Source: an uncultured Chlamydiales bacterium (GTDB lineage: Bacteria; Chlamydiota; Chlamydiia; Chlamydiales; JAAKFR01). Taken from it: a stretch of 64,000 nt of DNA. Location: positions 1,227,757 through 1,291,756 of the forward strand of contig OY969414.1 in the NCBI GenBank assembly GCA_963699155.1, in the 5' to 3' direction. The notes under the pieces are model-generated. The model saw only the letters and a program-made list of their open reading frames with translations. It was not told the origin of the DNA and ran no database searches. A program made the translations under genes and the position numbers. Shown here one piece after another: positions 13,742-24,601 of the stretch (within the stretch, counting starts at the first letter, position 1; each line of letters starts with the position of its first letter).

Positions 13742-17892
<4,151 letters not shown>

Positions 17893-17897
17893 GAAAA

Positions 17898-17923
17898 AGA
17901 GCCCAGGTTCACCCCTGGGCTCT
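17898..17923. terminator. Hairpin after rpoC (probable terminator)
   Basis: AGAGCCCAGG...CCTGGGCTCT, preceded by an A-run. Confidence 0.55.
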
Positions 17924-17940
17924 CTAACAAAGGAAACCCT

Positions 17941-18306
17941 ATGTCCCTCAAACCCGTCACCTTCTGCCAAGTCTATAATGAATATGGCACCGAAGGCCTT
18001 ACTGAGGAAGGGAAGTCTACGCGAAAAATCATGATTGGCTGCATCGCCGGAGGAATTGGCGGGGTTGTTTCCGGTGCATTAGTCATCGTTCTAGCTATTC
18101 TCTTTCCCAGCCACCCTTTTCTCAATATGTGGCAAATGCCCCCAGTAACTTTCACAGCGATCGTCGCCACTTCAGGATCTATCATGGCGTTGTGTGGCTC
18201 CATCCTCGCTATACTCTATACTTATCTTGGCTATTGCCACCCCATGAGTGAGGAGAACATGAACCATGAGGTCCATCCCGATATCATCCCCCAGCTCCGC
18301 GCCTAG
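17941..18306 (+). CDS. Small membrane protein with a bilobed hydrophobic segment (Inc-like candidate)
   Basis: 121 aa, two close hydrophobic stretches, no signal peptide. Confidence 0.55.
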   Translation: MSLKPVTFCQVYNEYGTEGLTEEGKSTRKIMIGCIAGGIGGVVSGALVIVLAILFPSHPFLNMWQMPPVTFTAIVATSGSIMALCGSILAILYTYLGYCHPMSEENMNHEVHPDIIPQLRA

Positions 18307-18439
18307 TTCTTATCGTTCCTATCGTTGTATCGTTCAAATCGTTTTCTGGTTTCGACGCATTTGACATGAAATTTCTTATCCAAAATTGGCGTTTTTTTAT
18401 GAACATCCTGTATGAGATGAGAAAAAGCGAGGAGACTCA

Positions 18440-19183
18440 ATGAAAAGCATTTCACTGTTAGCACTGCTGTTGTTCATATCCGCTAGTTCACTGCCTAGTG
18501 TGGGAACTGAGGAGAGCATGGGTAGGGTTGATGGCATCGAGATCAATGTGGCAGTACAGGGACCAGCGACGCAGGAGACACCTTTACAGGTTGCCTGTCT
18601 GTTTGAGTATACGGAAGGCGATATTTACAAATCGCCCCCTGCATTACCAAAAGAGTTGAATGGGATGGTCCATCTGGATGAAGCATTGAATGGACTCATT
18701 ACCGAGATACGCAAGACAAATAAATTTAGGGGAGAGCTCTTAGAAACACTACTCATTACACCTCCACCCAATACGGTGAAGGCAAAAAGATTACTGCTGA
18801 TCGGTCTTGGAAATAGGGACAGCTTCAAACCTGAAATCATGCGGATGGTCGGTGTTGTAGGGATGCGAGAAGCGTTGAGAATGGGGGTTTCGAGCTACGC
18901 GCATGCGAGCGACTTAAAGGATGCGGGGATCTCTTCGCCCACAGCTGAAGTGGCTGAGTTTGCGATCAAGGGAGCGATAGAGGCTTACCGTACACAACTC
19001 TTTTTAAAAGAGCGGAATGCTTCGGAGAATTTAACCGTAAATAAAATGACTCTTCTAGCCGGACCAGCCTTAGAAAGTATCGTGGGAAGTTTGAAAAGCT
19101 TAGCTGTCTTAGCCAAGATGGCTGTGTTATGCATAATGGACAGACGATCATGGCTTTGGACTCCAAAGTACATGGCCGGCTGA
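18440..19183 (+). CDS. Exported peptidase M17 N-terminal-domain-like protein; 3' end replaced by antisense ycaC sequence
   Basis: Signal peptide; HLDEALNGLITEIRK...FRGELLETLL...AKRLLLIGLG resembles the PepA N-domain; no catalytic C-domain. Confidence 0.7.
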   Translation: MKSISLLALLLFISASSLPSVGTEESMGRVDGIEINVAVQGPATQETPLQVACLFEYTEGDIYKSPPALPKELNGMVHLDEALNGLITEIRKTNKFRGELLETLLITPPPNTVKAKRLLLIGLGNRDSFKPEIMRMVGVVGMREALRMGVSSYAHASDLKDAGISSPTAEVAEFAIKGAIEAYRTQLFLKERNASENLTVNKMTLLAGPALESIVGSLKSLAVLAKMAVLCIMDRRSWLWTPKYMAG

Positions 19184-19239
19184 AAGTCTATCAAAGCGAG
19201 CGCACAATTCTGAGGGGTTAGCATTTCTCTCATACTCAT
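19070..19239 (-). pseudogene. 5' remnant of an isochorismatase/YcaC-family hydrolase
   Basis: MLTPQNCALALIDFQPAMYFGVQS...AKTAKLFKLPTILS is a YcaC-type N-terminus; homology stops after ~56 aa. Confidence 0.75.
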
Positions 19240-19282
19240 AACAACCTACCTTTTAGCGGGAAACTAGGCAAAATGAGCTAGA

Positions 19283-19311
19283 TTGTCAATAAAAAATTTA
19301 CTTGTTAGGAT
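19283..19311 (+). promoter_or_regulatory. Putative sigma70/sigma66-type promoter of the NHLP-like gene
   Basis: TTGTCA-17 bp-TAGGAT; GGAGG Shine-Dalgarno at 19328-19332. Confidence 0.4.
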
Positions 19312-19337
19312 AGACTTAACTATTTTGGAGGGTTTTT

Positions 19338-19913
19338 ATGGCAGTTGAAAAAGAATTAGATGGCTCGGTTCTTGAAATTTTGACAAAGCCTGAAGTCAGA
19401 AAAGAATTTAAACAAAATCCGCGAGAATGTCTCAAAAAGCACAATATTAAATGGAGCGATGACCGAGAAATTAAAGTCTCCGAAGATACAGACAAAAAAA
19501 TCTATTTTACCATTAGGGTAATGAAAGATCCAAAATTATTGGATCAAATCGAGCTACCTGAGAACTTAAAAAAATTCTATAGAGAACTGTACCAATCACC
19601 CGAGCTCCGTGCTCGATTGCAACGCAATCCAAAAGAAGTTTTTAAATCGTTTAATATTGATTTTCCGAGTGACAAAGAGATTATTGTTCTTGAAGATAGC
19701 GATCAGCTTTTTAATTTTGTTCTTCCAGATTCATCAGAAATTAGTGAAGCGGAATTAGCTCAACTAGCAGGTGGGGTAACAACCAAGAAGAGTACCTCAA
19801 CAGATCTGATTGTCGCTGGTGTCGTCTTATGCAGTTTGAATCTCTTTGTGGGTGCTGGATTTATTATTGCGGGTGCTGTCCTTAAAAGTAGAGAGGCTCA
19901 AACCAAAAATTAA
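19338..19913 (+). CDS. NHLP (nitrile hydratase-like leader) family RiPP precursor with a duplicated leader domain
   Basis: Two copies of R..(F/L)..NP(R/K)E.........D.EI.V.ED.D...F, then LP...EISEAELAQLAGG and a 45-aa hydrophobic core. Confidence 0.8.
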   Translation: MAVEKELDGSVLEILTKPEVRKEFKQNPRECLKKHNIKWSDDREIKVSEDTDKKIYFTIRVMKDPKLLDQIELPENLKKFYRELYQSPELRARLQRNPKEVFKSFNIDFPSDKEIIVLEDSDQLFNFVLPDSSEISEAELAQLAGGVTTKKSTSTDLIVAGVVLCSLNLFVGAGFIIAGAVLKSREAQTKN

Positions 19914-19917
19914 TAAC

Positions 19918-20807
19918 TCAAATTCTTGCCGAGTTAGAGCGGCCACTCCCAGGTGTGTAGCTTTGGGGAGTGGGACGAGGAGCTACTTGCCGAGGAGGAG
20001 GTTCTTGTCTGGGAGGAGGGTCGGGGTTTCTCACCACCATGCCCACAAGACCGATAGATCGCTTTTGAGGTAACCTGAATTCCTCTCTCTTCTGGGCGGG
20101 CTTTGGAGCAGGCTGTTGAACCGGCCTTGAAGAGGGTGGGGGCACAATTTTACTGGGCTGAGGGGGAGAAGTTGTCACTACAGGCTGCGGGCTATAAGGG
20201 GTAAAATCAACGGCTCTTGGCATAGGAGGAGCTGTCACTACAGGCTGTGGAGTGTATGGGGTGAAATCGACATGGCTTGTTACAGAAAAGGATGGCGAGT
20301 CTGTGAATCCACTGAACATAGTAGAGGAATCCGTAGGCGTTGCGTATGGGGTATATTCACCGTACTTGACGAGCTCCCTCCGCTATAAGGAACATAATCA
20401 GACTCTGTTGACGAAGGTGAGTGCAGGATATCGGAAGCGGCATCGTCGAGTGTGCTTTTAAAATCAGAAAAGACTATACCTCCAAAAGCTGCTGCTTCAG
20501 TTGCCTTTTCGATAGATTGAGCGAGAATGAGGCCATTGGCATAGCTTGGAGTAAACATAGACCCTCCCAAACCATCAATTCCAACCGCAACAGCAGCGCC
20601 ATCTTGGAGCAGAGTTGACTTGTTCATGAGCTCTGCCACTTTTAGAGCTGTTTCTGCCGCATGAATTTCCTCATCGACTTTGGTAAAATCGGGGTAACCA
20701 AAGCCTTTCGAGGCGAAATAGCTATCTATCAAAGCATTCTTAGCTCTGTTCGCAGCATCCAATCTCGCCTGTGCGGCTTGGATAGGGCCATTTAATGGTG
20801 GTGCCAT
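19918..20807 (-). CDS. Pro/Ser-rich hypothetical protein (one frameshift at ~20370), paralog of 62196-63224
   Basis: ORFs 20280-20807 and 19918-20319 join; N-terminus QAAQARLDAANRAKNALID...PDFTKVDEEI matches the 62 kb protein. Confidence 0.7.
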
Positions 20808-20899
20808 TCATTTCCTCATTTGCTTAATTTTCTCATTTCCAGTAAATTCTATAGTTTCAAGTTAATTTCGAGCTAATTATTTTTAATTAAGGAGAAGAG

Positions 20900-22230
20900 A
20901 TGGCAGCCGCTTCATCAGTATCATCACACAGTATAAAGAGAGCTCCTTCACAGGATGCGAGAGGAGCACCCGCAAGGGGACAAAATGGTGAAGTAGCTCG
21001 GGTCGTGCAAACATCTCTAGCTAGTCAAAGCCCTCCTACTCAACTCCCAGCAGATCTGCTCTCTGAATGCTGCAAGAAAGGGGATATTGCTGTTGTGAGA
21101 AGGGCCATTGAGAGGGGAGCGCGTCCCGATGCCCAAACTCTCACTTGGGCTTGTCACTCAAAGAAATATGAAATTGTAGAGGCTGTAGTCGCAGTGGGAG
21201 CCAAACCGGATGGTGAGACGCTGACAACTGCTTGTGCAACAGGTAATCCCGCCATTGTCATGAAAATTCTCTCTTTGGGCGCCACACCCTCTTTTAATAC
21301 GAAAAGAATCGCTGAAAAGAGTCGAAATGATGAGATTATTCGAATGATCTATACTTTGAGGAGCGAAAGTTCTCCCTGGTCCAGTACCTCAGAAGATCCC
21401 TTCAAACCCAATAAAGAGGATTTATTTAAAAAGCAGCAAGAGACTATTCGGGCGATTGAGCAAAATACCCTAGATCGTCAAATGGAAGCTCATCATTGGA
21501 ACTTGTTAGGGGGCTATTTGCTTCGAGGACAAACGGTCAATGTCAGAGGTAAACCCTACACTCAAAAGGATACCGCCTTAGAAGCTATATCTCTAGAGTA
21601 TCCAGGTAAGTTCGATGCTCATTTAGTCCTCGCATCAATTCTTCCAGATGGAGAAAAGATCCTAATGCCTGATGGAAAATGGATGACAAAGAAGCAGCTT
21701 TGCAAAAAGGCTATGGCCATCGATGGAGGCCAACCCCATACTACGGCCGTCTTGTAGAGATGATGGCGGAGGGAGAGCGGCTTGCATTAGTCCCACAGGG
21801 CCTTCCAATGACAAAGCAGGAGATCCTTCTCCATGGACTTGGCATTTTGGGTCGTTGGAAAGGGTTTATCTATTACCCTCTTGCATTAACCCTTCCTGAT
21901 CTGGGGGCCTCTATCCAAGTAGGGGGCGTAATGATGACACAAGAGGCGCTATTGCTAGAAAGCATACGTGAGCTGGCCGGTTTTGCTTTAGCTTGCTACG
22001 TACTTGCTCACCGTCTTCCAGATCAGAGAACCGTCAAATTGCATGATGGAAGGAAAATGTCAAAGCAACAGCTATACTGCGAGGCATTAGCAAGAAACTT
22101 CCCCTGTCCTGCATTGGTCCATCACGATCTGGGGCGTTCTCTTCCTGTGGGGGGAAGAATTCAGGTGCCACCAGATAACCGCATCATGACGAGGGAAGAG
22201 CTTCTCACGAGTAGAGCCTATAACATCTGA
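20900..22230 (+). CDS. Ankyrin-like repeat protein with C-terminal ~40-aa TPR-like repeats (one frameshift at ~21735)
   Basis: GARPDAQTLTWAC / GAKPDGETLTTAC repeats; the LP.G..I...DG..MTKxQL repeat continues across ORFs 20900-21757 and 21679-22230. Confidence 0.7.
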
Positions 22231-22270
22231 CACTACTGTTTGTAGATGTCGACACCGCTGCTTTTTTTTA

Positions 22271-24577
22271 TCAATGTTTGTAGGTCTCGACCCGTTTAAG
22301 CCAGCCTGAGAGCCATTTGCCTTCTTGGTCGGGGTTGGGGGAGTTTTGGACGCGGAGGATGAGGAGCTCCTTGGCCGATTCGGCGAAATCGTAGACGATG
22401 TGAGGGGATTTGGGTGAGACGCGCTGCAGGACCTGGAGGAGGCCCCACCCTTGGCCATTATAGCGCTCCTTGGGAGAGGTGCCAGCGCCTTTGAAGTTGA
22501 GATAATCGACGAGGGCGTAGAGGCCATTGGAAGTGTTGGCCAGCTTGTAAAAGACGCGGATGGCATTTTCGCGCTCTGCATTGGGGAGATAGATCACAAT
22601 TTCTGGAAGTCTTCTTTCAAAGCGCTTGGCGAGGAAAATAGCCTGAAATTTTCTTGTGTCGACAAGGAATTGGCGCAAAGATTTCATCTGCGGGCTATTG
22701 ATGTTGTGATAGAACTCCTCACGAGAATTCCAGGGACAGGCTTCTGCCTCGCGCAGCCACTCGGGAATGGGTAGGTTAAGTTCCATCAGATAGTGGAGAA
22801 ATTCGGGAAATATCTCTTCGAAAGGACCTCTATAATTGGCGGGATACCAGATAAAATGGCCAATCCCAAAAGAGCCGAAATTTTCGCCTTTGTTCCAGTG
22901 AATGAGGTAGTCGATACTCCCGCCGCATTCGTTATACCAGATTTTGTCTGCAATCTTAATGGCATCTCTTTCATTGATGGTGAAGGAAAAGCCATCACCC
23001 CTCTTTTTGATGGTTTCTAGGGCAGATAAGAGGGAGGGGGGTGTTGGACTATAGGTGGCCAGAATTAAATCAGCACCGGGAAAGAGCGTCACATCGATCG
23101 GATCGCGTGCCGCGATGAGAATGACCGGTTTTCCCATTTCGATTAACTGCTGTAAAAATGCTTCTTGCTCAGGTTGATTCCAAGCATTAGAGCTGAAGAG
23201 GCAGAGAATATCGGCCTTGCTGGCCTCTTCGATCAATGGGGATGAAGGGTGCTTCTTTGAAAAAAAGATAATCGAGCTCTCTTTGCCGAAGGGTATAGAG
23301 AGTTGCCGTAGATGCGGCTCTAGACTGTCTGGAGCAAAGATTGCGACCGATCGTTGGCTGAGTGAGGGAATAAAAAAGAACTCATGTTTAATGGTGCGAA
23401 TCGCCTCTGCAGCAATTTTTTTTGCCAGTTGCTCATGGTTCGCTTTATTGAAAGAAGGGGCTTCTGACCTATCTAAGGAGCGCTCTTTTAACTGAATCAG
23501 CCTCGAAACAGATTCCTCGATCCTTTTTTCAGAAAGGCGTCCGCTTTTCACAGCATCCACGATGGCCAGATGGATGCGCTGCACATCATGAGGGGATAGC
23601 TCTTTTGAAAGATCTGCTCCAATCAATTGTTTCCCTCCCAAAAGAAGAAGATTACTACCTGCAGCAATGGCTTGGATCGCTGCTTCTTCAATCGAGCTGC
23701 AGCATTTCAGAAGTCCCTCCATCACCAAGGAGTCGGCGATGATGATTCCTGGAAAGCCGATCTCTTCTCTCAAATAAGAAAGAATTTTTGGCGAGAGTGT
23801 GGCGCATTTTTCTGAATCGAGTGCAGGAACAAGAATATGACCTGTCAAAATCGTATCGCACTCGGAGGCAAGCTGGGCGAAGGGAAGAAGTTCCCTTACT
23901 TTCAGCTCCTCCAAGGGCTTCTTCACAGTCGGCAAATCGAAGTGCGAATCGACCCCGACATCACCATGACCGGGAAAATGTTTGAGTGAGCTCACGATTC
24001 CCGCTTGTCTGTAACCCTCTAGAGTCGGTTTGGCAAACCGAATGACCGTTTCAGGATCTTCGCCAAATGAGCGGATCCCGATGACAGGGTTGCGAGGGTT
24101 GGAATTGACATCGACGACAGGGGAGAGATTCAGATTGACACCCACAGCTTTCAACTCGGAGCCCATGGCAAGAGCACTTTCTTCAGCCCACTCTGGTTTG
24201 CCAGCCATAGCAAGAGCGCGATTACCTGGGAAGAGAGTAAAGCCCTCCGTCAAACGGGTAACCTGGCCTCCTTCCTGATCGACAACGATCCAGAGGGGGA
24301 TAGGAAGGCGGTTTTCGCACGCGATCGCTTGCAGACCATCGCTGAGGAGACGCACTTGGTGCGGTGACTTAAGCCCATTCGCCCAATTATAGTAGATGAT
24401 CCCTCCGATATGGACCTCTCGGATCAGAAAATGGGCATCCTGATTGGCCTCTTCACCATAGAAGTGAGCCACAAGAAGTTGTCCCACTTTCTCTTCAAGG
24501 GTCATTTGATCGATCGTAGATGAACCAAAACAGGGAAAGAGTGCTAAAATAGCGGCAAACGCAAAAAATGGTCGCAT
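22271..24577 (-). CDS. nagZ: GH3 beta-N-acetylhexosaminidase fused to an extra ~230-aa C-terminal domain
   Basis: Signal peptide, VDQEGGQV, IRSFGEDP, KHFPGHGDVGVDSH, IIADSLVM. Confidence 0.88.
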   Translation of the reverse strand: MRPFFAFAAILALFPCFGSSTIDQMTLEEKVGQLLVAHFYGEEANQDAHFLIREVHIGGIIYYNWANGLKSPHQVRLLSDGLQAIACENRLPIPLWIVVDQEGGQVTRLTEGFTLFPGNRALAMAGKPEWAEESALAMGSELKAVGVNLNLSPVVDVNSNPRNPVIGIRSFGEDPETVIRFAKPTLEGYRQAGIVSSLKHFPGHGDVGVDSHFDLPTVKKPLEELKVRELLPFAQLASECDTILTGHILVPALDSEKCATLSPKILSYLREEIGFPGIIIADSLVMEGLLKCCSSIEEAAIQAIAAGSNLLLLGGKQLIGADLSKELSPHDVQRIHLAIVDAVKSGRLSEKRIEESVSRLIQLKERSLDRSEAPSFNKANHEQLAKKIAAEAIRTIKHEFFFIPSLSQRSVAIFAPDSLEPHLRQLSIPFGKESSIIFFSKKHPSSPLIEEASKADILCLFSSNAWNQPEQEAFLQQLIEMGKPVILIAARDPIDVTLFPGADLILATYSPTPPSLLSALETIKKRGDGFSFTINERDAIKIADKIWYNECGGSIDYLIHWNKGENFGSFGIGHFIWYPANYRGPFEEIFPEFLHYLMELNLPIPEWLREAEACPWNSREEFYHNINSPQMKSLRQFLVDTRKFQAIFLAKRFERRLPEIVIYLPNAERENAIRVFYKLANTSNGLYALVDYLNFKGAGTSPKERYNGQGWGLLQVLQRVSPKSPHIVYDFAESAKELLILRVQNSPNPDQEGKWLSGWLKRVETYKH

Positions 24578-24601
24578 GGTCAGAGCAGTATAGACTAACT
24601 G

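Follow-up and report, generated by a model that had tools for sequence, protein, structure and literature searches.

A chlamydia-like genome carries a family of peptide precursors with a doubled nitrile-hydratase-like leader and a double-glycine site

The open reading frame (ORF) at positions 19338–19913 (+) of a 64,000-nt stretch of the genome of a chlamydia-like soil bacterium (the window, C1:1227757–1291756) encodes a 191-aa protein with two tandem nitrile-hydratase-like leader peptide (NHLP) units, a double-glycine site and a 45-aa tail. The genome is a single contig of 2,399,326 bp with 47.5% GC and a completeness given as 100%. The protein belongs to a known precursor family. An exporter of a known type most likely serves it in trans, with release of an unmodified peptide. 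The preferred interpretation, with a probability of roughly 0.6, is a precursor that undergoes cleavage in trans behind Gly146 and leaves the cell as a bacteriocin-like membrane peptide. Two NHLP units would make up residues 1–146, a folded and acidic leader, and a double-glycine recognition helix would close the second unit. The precursor would be recognized by the C39 peptidase domain of the sole catalytically intact NHLP pump of the genome (cassette B: a TolC-like protein, HlyD, ABC1 and ABC2). Cleavage after Gly146 would free the cationic hydrophobic core for transport across both membranes, and the product would be an unmodified, membrane-active peptide similar to a class II bacteriocin or microcin.

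Leader unit 1 (aa 1–75, positions 19338–19562, +) is without a cleavage motif, and leader unit 2 (aa 76–146, positions 19563–19775, +) ends in the double-glycine motif. The two units show 35% identity over 63 aa by BLASTP (E = 4e-12); judged from their sequences, they are homologous beyond chance and represent true internal repeats. The whole precursor scores 58.6 bits against NCBIfam TIGR03793 (leader_NHLP, curated cut-off 50.9), with two matching stretches, and 36.3 bits against Pfam NHase_alpha (cut-off 27.2). Searched separately, unit 1 scores 24.7 bits with TIGR03793 (aa 18–68 on model positions 17–67 of 77) and unit 2 scores 39.4 bits (model positions 18–77 of 77); unit 2 also reaches 29.5 bits with NHase_alpha against the cut-off of 27.2. 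Each half is below the TIGR03793 cut-off, and the whole protein passes because the two units add up. The tandem NHLP leader proposed in the first-pass annotation, which was made from the DNA letters of the window, is thus borne out for the whole protein. The translation contains the sequence blocks that it described, together with the motif ...AELAQLAGG and a tail of 45 aa that starts at nt 19776.

The fold predicted for the tandem leader is similar to that of the nitrile hydratase (NHase) alpha subunit. An AlphaFold2 model from the alignment of 93 double-leader sequences has a pLDDT (predicted local distance difference test) of 78 and a pTM (predicted template modelling score) of 0.71. Residues 11–130 are at 86–97 and the tail at residues 147–185 is below 50. 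The model displays three helices and a beta-hairpin per leader unit. A Foldseek comparison with the PDB returns only NHase alpha and thiocyanate hydrolase gamma chains to E = 7e-3, with the next match at E = 0.5. VIA-align superposes the model on NHase alpha with Z values of 7.0–8.4 over 119–134 aligned residues and with both units covered; model residues from about 7 to 145 (or to 185) span NHase chain residues of about 50–200, and these make up the complete C-terminal domain of the enzyme subunit. The solved single-unit NHLP leaders (SonA and the proteusin precursor 8TB1) align with unit 2 alone, with Z values of 3.5–4.6. When mapped by sequence to TIGR03887, the two units fall at positions 117–168 and 121–169, i.e., on the same part of the enzyme family model. 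This argues for the duplication of one unit, which in the model ends up resembling the two-lobed parent fold. The protein does not classify as an NHase alpha enzyme: with the equivalog model TIGR01323 it reaches 36.9 bits (cut-off 249.85), and the leader holds a single Cys (aa 31), so that the metal-binding Cys cluster that is a feature of that enzyme is absent.

The cleavage motif of the precursor consists of Ile-12, Leu-7, Leu-4, Gly-2 and Gly-1, with the two Gly codons at positions 19770–19775. In the alignment of 93 double-leader proteins (13 from this genome and 80 from a search of representative proteins), Gly-1 is present in 87 and Gly-2 in 85. A hydrophobic residue occupies position -4 in 85, and positions -7 and -12 in 92 each. 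The peptidase LahT150 seats the -4, -7 and -12 residues in hydrophobic pockets, and its cleavage of nitrile-hydratase-type leaders is reported (PMC6363468).

Downstream of the motif, the 45-aa core (positions 19776–19910, +) has a net charge of +3 and no match in NCBIfam or Pfam. It contains nine Ser/Thr residues and, as read from the sequence, a 26-residue uncharged hydrophobic stretch (aa 157–182, positions 19806–19883, +) with Lys/Asp and Lys/Arg in its flanks; the Kyte-Doolittle 19-residue maximum is 2.28. A membrane-active peptide with a V/A/G/I-type core had been suggested earlier. The hydrophobicity and charge agree with this description, and from this composition membrane activity may be expected. 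The single Cys also noted for the core is present (aa 165), and a second one, that of leader unit 1, brings the count in the whole precursor to two. Compared to the closest homologue, P0002 (metagenomic, 47% identity), unit 1 has 25 of 69 identical residues, unit 2 has 39 of 71 and the core has 3 of 33. A search of the ESM Atlas with the 45-aa core gives best scores of 0.77, below lead level, to an NHLP cluster and to a cluster that has Bacteriocin_IIc on 11% of its members. Tail length varies between 8 and 76 aa across the 93 double-leader proteins, and in composition there are tails that are hydrophobic and Gly/Ala-rich, tails rich in Cys, and others that are hydrophilic or cationic. The tail thus does not behave as a conserved anchor. 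A family of homologues that lack the Gly-Gly site and keep the tail as a conserved transmembrane anchor is ruled out by the conserved motif and the variable tails, and the proposed site with a hydrophobic, hypervariable core is upheld.

The gene is one of a paralogous family. A six-frame search of the genome with TIGR03793 shows 31 matches, 30 of which are in 17 open frames; the remaining match (12.1 bits) is in a frame with six stops. Thirteen frames have two matches (168–201 aa) and four have one (114–133 aa). The 17 genes are scattered, all but one are lower in GC than their flanks, and the GC content of third codon positions (GC3) is below the 5th percentile in seven. A Gly-Gly-type site is kept in 15 of the 17 and is followed by cores of 22–55 aa; only two of these 15 cores have Cys, with a single residue in either case. 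A hydrophobicity sufficient for spanning a membrane is found in five of 11 double-leader cores and in none of the four cores with a single leader. The mean pairwise identity across the 13 double-leader paralogs is 0.29 and 0.30 for the two units and 0.14 for the tail; within the subfamily of the window protein, the values are 0.39, 0.44 and 0.15, respectively. From these sequences, the shared leaders and differing cores look like a diversified peptide arsenal. The initial description of an orphan, or of a captured relic, does not hold in a genome with 16 further NHLP-leader genes and two NHLP export cassettes; orphan status of an NHLP-family gene cannot be shown from a single 64-kb window.

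No exporter or maturase is found in the 64-kb window, as had been stated, and processing in trans is in keeping with the cassettes elsewhere in the genome. The genome-wide scan for C39-peptidase ATP-binding cassette (ABC) transporters, HlyD and further NHLP paralogs, which the first-pass annotation had put forward, locates Peptidase_C39 matches at two places, both within NHLP export cassettes in the sense of Haft et al. (PMC2887384), made up of HlyD, C39-peptidase ABC (ABC1) and second ABC (ABC2). The curated cut-offs are 156.2 bits for HlyD (TIGR03794), 853.3 for ABC1 (TIGR03796) and 709.4 for ABC2 (TIGR03797). Cassette B (C1:2198513–2206495, +) has a TolC-like gene, HlyD at 199 bits, ABC1 at 910.8 and ABC2 at 685.6. 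In a comparison with LahT150 (6mpz_A), its peptidase domain reaches 142.7 bits and retains the residues that correspond to Cys27, His101 and Asp117, the catalytic triad of that enzyme (PMC6363468). In cassette A (C1:568183–573394, -), no TolC-like gene is seen and HlyD is short (282 aa, 143.2 bits); ABC1 scores 903.6 and ABC2 770.8. Its ABC1 (C1:570393–572546, -) has Ser and Gln in place of Cys27 and His101, with the Asp kept. The peptidase domain of cassette A is probably a non-proteolytic C39-like domain, similar to the non-catalytic C39-like domains described in PMC6363468, or the cassette is decaying. A third ABC1 fragment (TIGR03796 model positions 334–708) with three in-frame stops is found at C1:2188348–2189457, about 9 kb upstream of cassette B. 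By sequence, the exporter set would thus comprise one fully intact copy, one probably non-proteolytic copy and one remnant.

Four tandem paralogous genes of 373–456 aa are situated beside cassette A (C1:576185–581276). The first matches Pfam F-box with 27.2 bits (cut-off 20.5), and the four may be candidates for eukaryote-like effectors.

Modification by radical-SAM, LanM or YcaO enzymes, as first noted for precursors of this family, finds no counterpart in the genome. There are no matches to YcaO, LANC_like or SPASM; halogenases, N-methyltransferases, hydroxylases and other classes were not part of this screen. The 11 Radical_SAM proteins of the genome have their best matches to MtaB, MiaB, MqnC, an MqnE-like protein, RimO, HemW, HemN, LipA, RlmN (two) and EpmB, all of which are housekeeping families. 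A radical-SAM gene that is divergently adjacent to one paralog (L025) was considered as a maturase and rejected because of its match to MtaB (453 bits). When the 137 ORFs that flank the 17 loci are compared all against all, no neighbour family recurs except an element similar to an insertion sequence (IS), and neither export cassette has a recurrent neighbour. Leaders of the Nif11 type have no match in the genome. With no known NHLP maturase family in the genome and cores that are almost without Cys, the released peptide is most likely unmodified.

The doubled leader is widespread. A word-indexed homologue search gives two proteins with the single sequence and 11 with a profile. A profile of the 13 double-leader paralogs, compared with 1.84 billion representative proteins, gives 7,200 matches at E <= 1e-3, 1,853 at E <= 1e-10 and 24 at E <= 1e-30. 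Among the best 150 of the 7,200, there are 124 with one stretch that spans both units (11 are from this genome), 25 with two or more stretches and one with a single unit, i.e., two or more NHLP units are found in 149 of these 150. Outside of this genome the double leader is present in at least 113 clusters at 50% identity, contrary to the rarity that had been implied by the statement that such precursors normally have one leader domain. Source names place it in Cyanobacteria and Betaproteobacteria; double or multiple forms are found in metagenome-assembled genomes (MAGs) of Usitatibacter and Calothrix, where they are annotated just as 'NHLP leader peptide family RiPP precursor' (RiPP, a peptide made by ribosomes and then modified post-translationally). 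Three proteins, P0020, P0021 and P0024, have three or four leader units (311–406 aa) and cores that are strongly cationic and Arg/Trp-rich, or Gly/Tyr-rich; one of them is from a Calothrix MAG.

A quick maximum likelihood tree of the leaders separates the 13 proteins of this genome into two groups. One (SH-aLRT 99) has five of them, including the window protein, with four metagenomic sequences; the other (support 92) has eight, with six others. Since both groups have outside members, the subfamilies predate the species. In 72 of the 93 double-leader proteins, unit 1 is closer to its own unit 2 than to unit 2 of other proteins (mean identity 0.363 vs 0.283). This likeness within proteins could come from recurrent duplication, concerted evolution or a shared organismal composition.

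The genome encodes an Hc1 histone-like protein (74.5 bits) and two full-length ATP/ADP translocases, in agreement with the chlamydial origin assumed earlier. A survey of 250 scored genomes of the phylum shows ABC1 in 47 at E <= 1e-100 and in 33 over the curated cut-off; there is thus an exporter of this system in a phylum where a lack of it had been implied. None of the 29 genomes of a family with 1.0–1.2-Mb genomes has ABC1. NHLP leader matches are present in 31 genomes at E <= 1e-6 (23 over the cut-off), and 28 of these 31 also have ABC1, a count in which related genomes are not independent. The source genome has the most NHLP matches of the 250. Double-leader frames, a survey of which had been proposed, are found in the source genome, in G028, in G173 and perhaps in G102. 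G028 is a relative from another family; its contig C46 has five tandem double-leader genes (L055:12654–15973; 201–223 aa) that are divergent from a TolC-HlyD-ABC1-ABC2 cassette. These precursors have ...ELQAVSGG followed by Ser/Gly/Asn-rich, non-hydrophobic cores. As judged from gene order, the cluster represents the clearest physical link of doubled leaders to an NHLP pump, and no maturase stands out in it where precursors abut the pump.

A number of observations weigh against the interpretation as a trans-processed, unmodified membrane peptide. The exporters are about 0.67 Mb (A) and 0.95 Mb (B) from the precursor gene, and the link between precursor and pump therefore rests on co-occurrence and motif fit. 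A helical, membrane-active tail is suggested by composition, in a region where the pLDDT is below 50. No immunity gene is recognized near the precursor, although small immunity proteins need not resemble one another, and the maturase screen was confined to the classes named above. Further points of this kind are those that would be expected of a decaying or silent copy, a gene acquired by transfer or through paralog turnover whose processing or expression has ceased. Neither leader unit reaches the TIGR03793 cut-off by itself; two of the 13 double-leader paralogs are without a Gly-Gly-type site; and a close ortholog of the window protein is not found in five relatives, where the best matches have 27–36% identity, mostly to unit 2 alone. 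The GC3 of the gene is 0.297, the 0.8th percentile among 987 long ORFs of the genome, which fits a recent acquisition and possible decay. The substitutions in cassette A, the ABC1 fragment with its three stops and the IS-like two-ORF element, of which 100% identical copies are beside three NHLP paralogs (C1:1334432–1335363, 1620563–1621959 and 1700226–1701439), point in the same direction. On the other hand, the 191-aa frame is intact and has a GGAGG 6 nt ahead of its ATG, the cleavage motif retains its five recognition positions in full, cassette B is intact, and the fold is predicted with confidence. The identity to P0002 is 55% in unit 2 vs 9% in the core, which indicates selection on the leader. 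A decaying copy is considered improbable.

A somewhat less improbable alternative, still an unlikely one, is that of a true RiPP, in which the core would be modified in trans before export by an unscreened or novel class of maturase. Maturases are known to dock on NHLP leaders (LanM, YcaO, radical-SAM enzymes, halogenases and N-methyltransferases; PMC2887384, PMC12537861), SonA-SonM complexes are among the structural matches to unit 2, the core has a Ser/Thr cluster and one Cys that could be modified, and some double-leader homologues elsewhere have Cys-rich, RiPP-like cores. This is opposed by the maturase search, with its housekeeping radical-SAM proteins, by the absence of a recurrent neighbour at the 17 loci or either cassette and of an evident maturase in the G028 cluster, and by cores in this genome that are almost Cys-free. 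The hydrophobic stretch with its charged flanks would also suit an uncleaved, tail-anchored inner-membrane protein in which the cytoplasmic NHase-alpha-like double domain is the working part. The double unit is compact and its structural alignment takes in the full C-terminal domain of NHase alpha, and 5 of 11 double-leader cores could span a membrane. Such a protein is very improbable given that the Gly-Gly and -4/-7/-12 pattern is kept in 85–92 of 93 relatives, that many tails are non-hydrophobic and their lengths differ from 8 to 76 aa, and that the genes are found together with peptidase-bearing exporters, which in G028 are their direct neighbours; the equivalog score (36.9 vs 249.85 bits) and the single leader Cys also argue against an enzyme-like domain.

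The preferred interpretation of a precursor cut after Gly146 can be extended tentatively, in a form that is rather doubtful. The doubled leader may be a distinct, widespread and undescribed module that rebuilds an entire NHase-alpha-like domain within a single chain and works as an integral chaperone and as a handle for the secretion of difficult cargo. In this genome it would have been expanded into about 13 unmodified, membrane-inserting peptides that leave through a single active exporter, and these might act inside the host cell on rival symbionts or on host or inclusion membranes.

The gene is AT-rich, with a GC of 0.35–0.36 vs about 0.45–0.58 in its surroundings, and has its own Shine-Dalgarno-like GGAGG (positions 19327–19331, +), both as originally observed. 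The promoter-like sequence that had been noted, TTGTCA-17 nt-TAGGAT, is present at positions 19283–19311 (+), with 9 of 12 consensus matches and a TG before the second hexamer. It is a weak site defined by consensus match only, and the frequency of such sites is not above expectation (three found vs a mean of 1.7 in shuffled sequences). Directly upstream, positions 18440–19183 (+) contain a 247-aa ORF with a hydrophobic N-terminus that matches the N-terminal domain only of M17 leucyl aminopeptidases (46.5 bits), without the catalytic domain. Downstream, a Pro-rich 133-aa ORF and a 175-aa ORF with no family matches (positions 19918–20807, -, and 20900–21757, +) converge on the NHLP gene, and the ORF beyond this pair has a sub-threshold ankyrin-repeat match (21.1 bits, cut-off 27.3). 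A comparison of positions 15500–24600 with congeners at the DNA level shows that the rpoC part alone matches, with 76–79% identity. Three DNA runs of one soil-metagenome study contain five short contig pieces (50–249 nt) that match the window. Four are identical to it, and the 50-nt piece has 10 differences and may come from another organism. These runs may represent the source sample and hence give no independent support. For positions 19000–20300, no RNA data set is listed.

The doubled leader as a recurrent form, its 13-copy expansion in one chlamydial genome and its occurrence without a recognized maturase are apparently new in print. A published description of the doubled-leader layout was not found, nor was a report of an NHLP system in chlamydiae, including in the accessible text of PMC3482391; the literature searched was without most subscription journals, and this is weak evidence. 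A catalogue of cyanobacterial NHLP precursors lists lengths of up to 164 aa (Wang et al. 2011, PMC3140520). A 146-aa folded leader for a 45-aa cargo raises the question of what structured leaders do when there is no maturase to recruit. A considerable minority of environmental chlamydiae (33–47 of 250 genomes) have NHLP peptides together with an exporter dedicated to them. If it is true that an obligate intracellular bacterium keeps bacteriocin-like peptides, this bears on symbiont competition within the host cell.

Unmodified double-glycine bacteriocins and class II microcins are exported by a peptidase-containing ABC transporter (PCAT) with a membrane-fusion protein and TolC. Their leaders are about 15–30 aa and unstructured, and a dedicated immunity gene is beside the structural gene. 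The present precursor is similar in its Gly-Gly processing site, in a Gly/Ala-rich, hydrophobic and cationic core within a size range of 30–55 aa, and in the absence of a maturase. It differs in that the leader is 146 aa and predicted to be folded, and in that no immunity gene is recognized beside it. Similarity to the LahT/PCAT exporters is seen in the cassette B peptidase, with its LahT150 score and retained triad, and in the -4/-7/-12 and Gly-Gly positions of the precursor (PMC6363468). The system described here is different in being of the Gram-negative type, with HlyD, a second ABC protein without a peptidase and a TolC-like protein, and in having a second copy, cassette A, with Ser/Gln at Cys27/His101.

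Fused tandem pairs of the NHLP-Burk family (TIGR03795) occur in Delftia acidovorans and Acidovorax avenae (PMC2887384). These also have two NHase-like leader-family units per polypeptide, but they are described as fusions of two complete precursor genes, which belong to a two-peptide system located beside a cyclodehydratase. In the window protein two leaders precede a single core, a cleavage motif is lacking in unit 1, and no match to a YcaO cyclodehydratase is found in the genome. Single NHLPs are shown to be folded by nuclear magnetic resonance (NMR; 2025, PMC12537861), and the accessible text of that paper does not contain the terms 'tandem', 'duplicat' or 'two NHLP'. The solved single-unit leaders (8TB1 by NMR, and SonA in SonM complexes) correspond to unit 2 (model residues of about 71–129 or 75–181, at the Z values of 3.5–4.6 given above). 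They match one unit, whereas the doubled leader as a whole matches NHase alpha residues of about 50–200 (Z 7.0–8.4).

The nearest known system is the NHLP/NHLM system of Haft, Basu and Mitchell 2010 (PMC2887384), with NHLP families of 1–12 copies per genome and a three-gene export cassette. In that study the NHLM cassette is the sole co-profiled gene family, precursors are often far from any maturase, and of the 'chlamydia group' Victivallis alone is named in the accessible text. The leader family, the double-glycine end, the paralogous families and the cassette are the same in the present genome. The differences are that no maturase of a known class is found genome-wide (YcaO, LanC, SPASM and radical-SAM were screened), that the host is chlamydia-like, and that two units in tandem share one cleavage site, in a family of 17 copies of which 13 are doubled.

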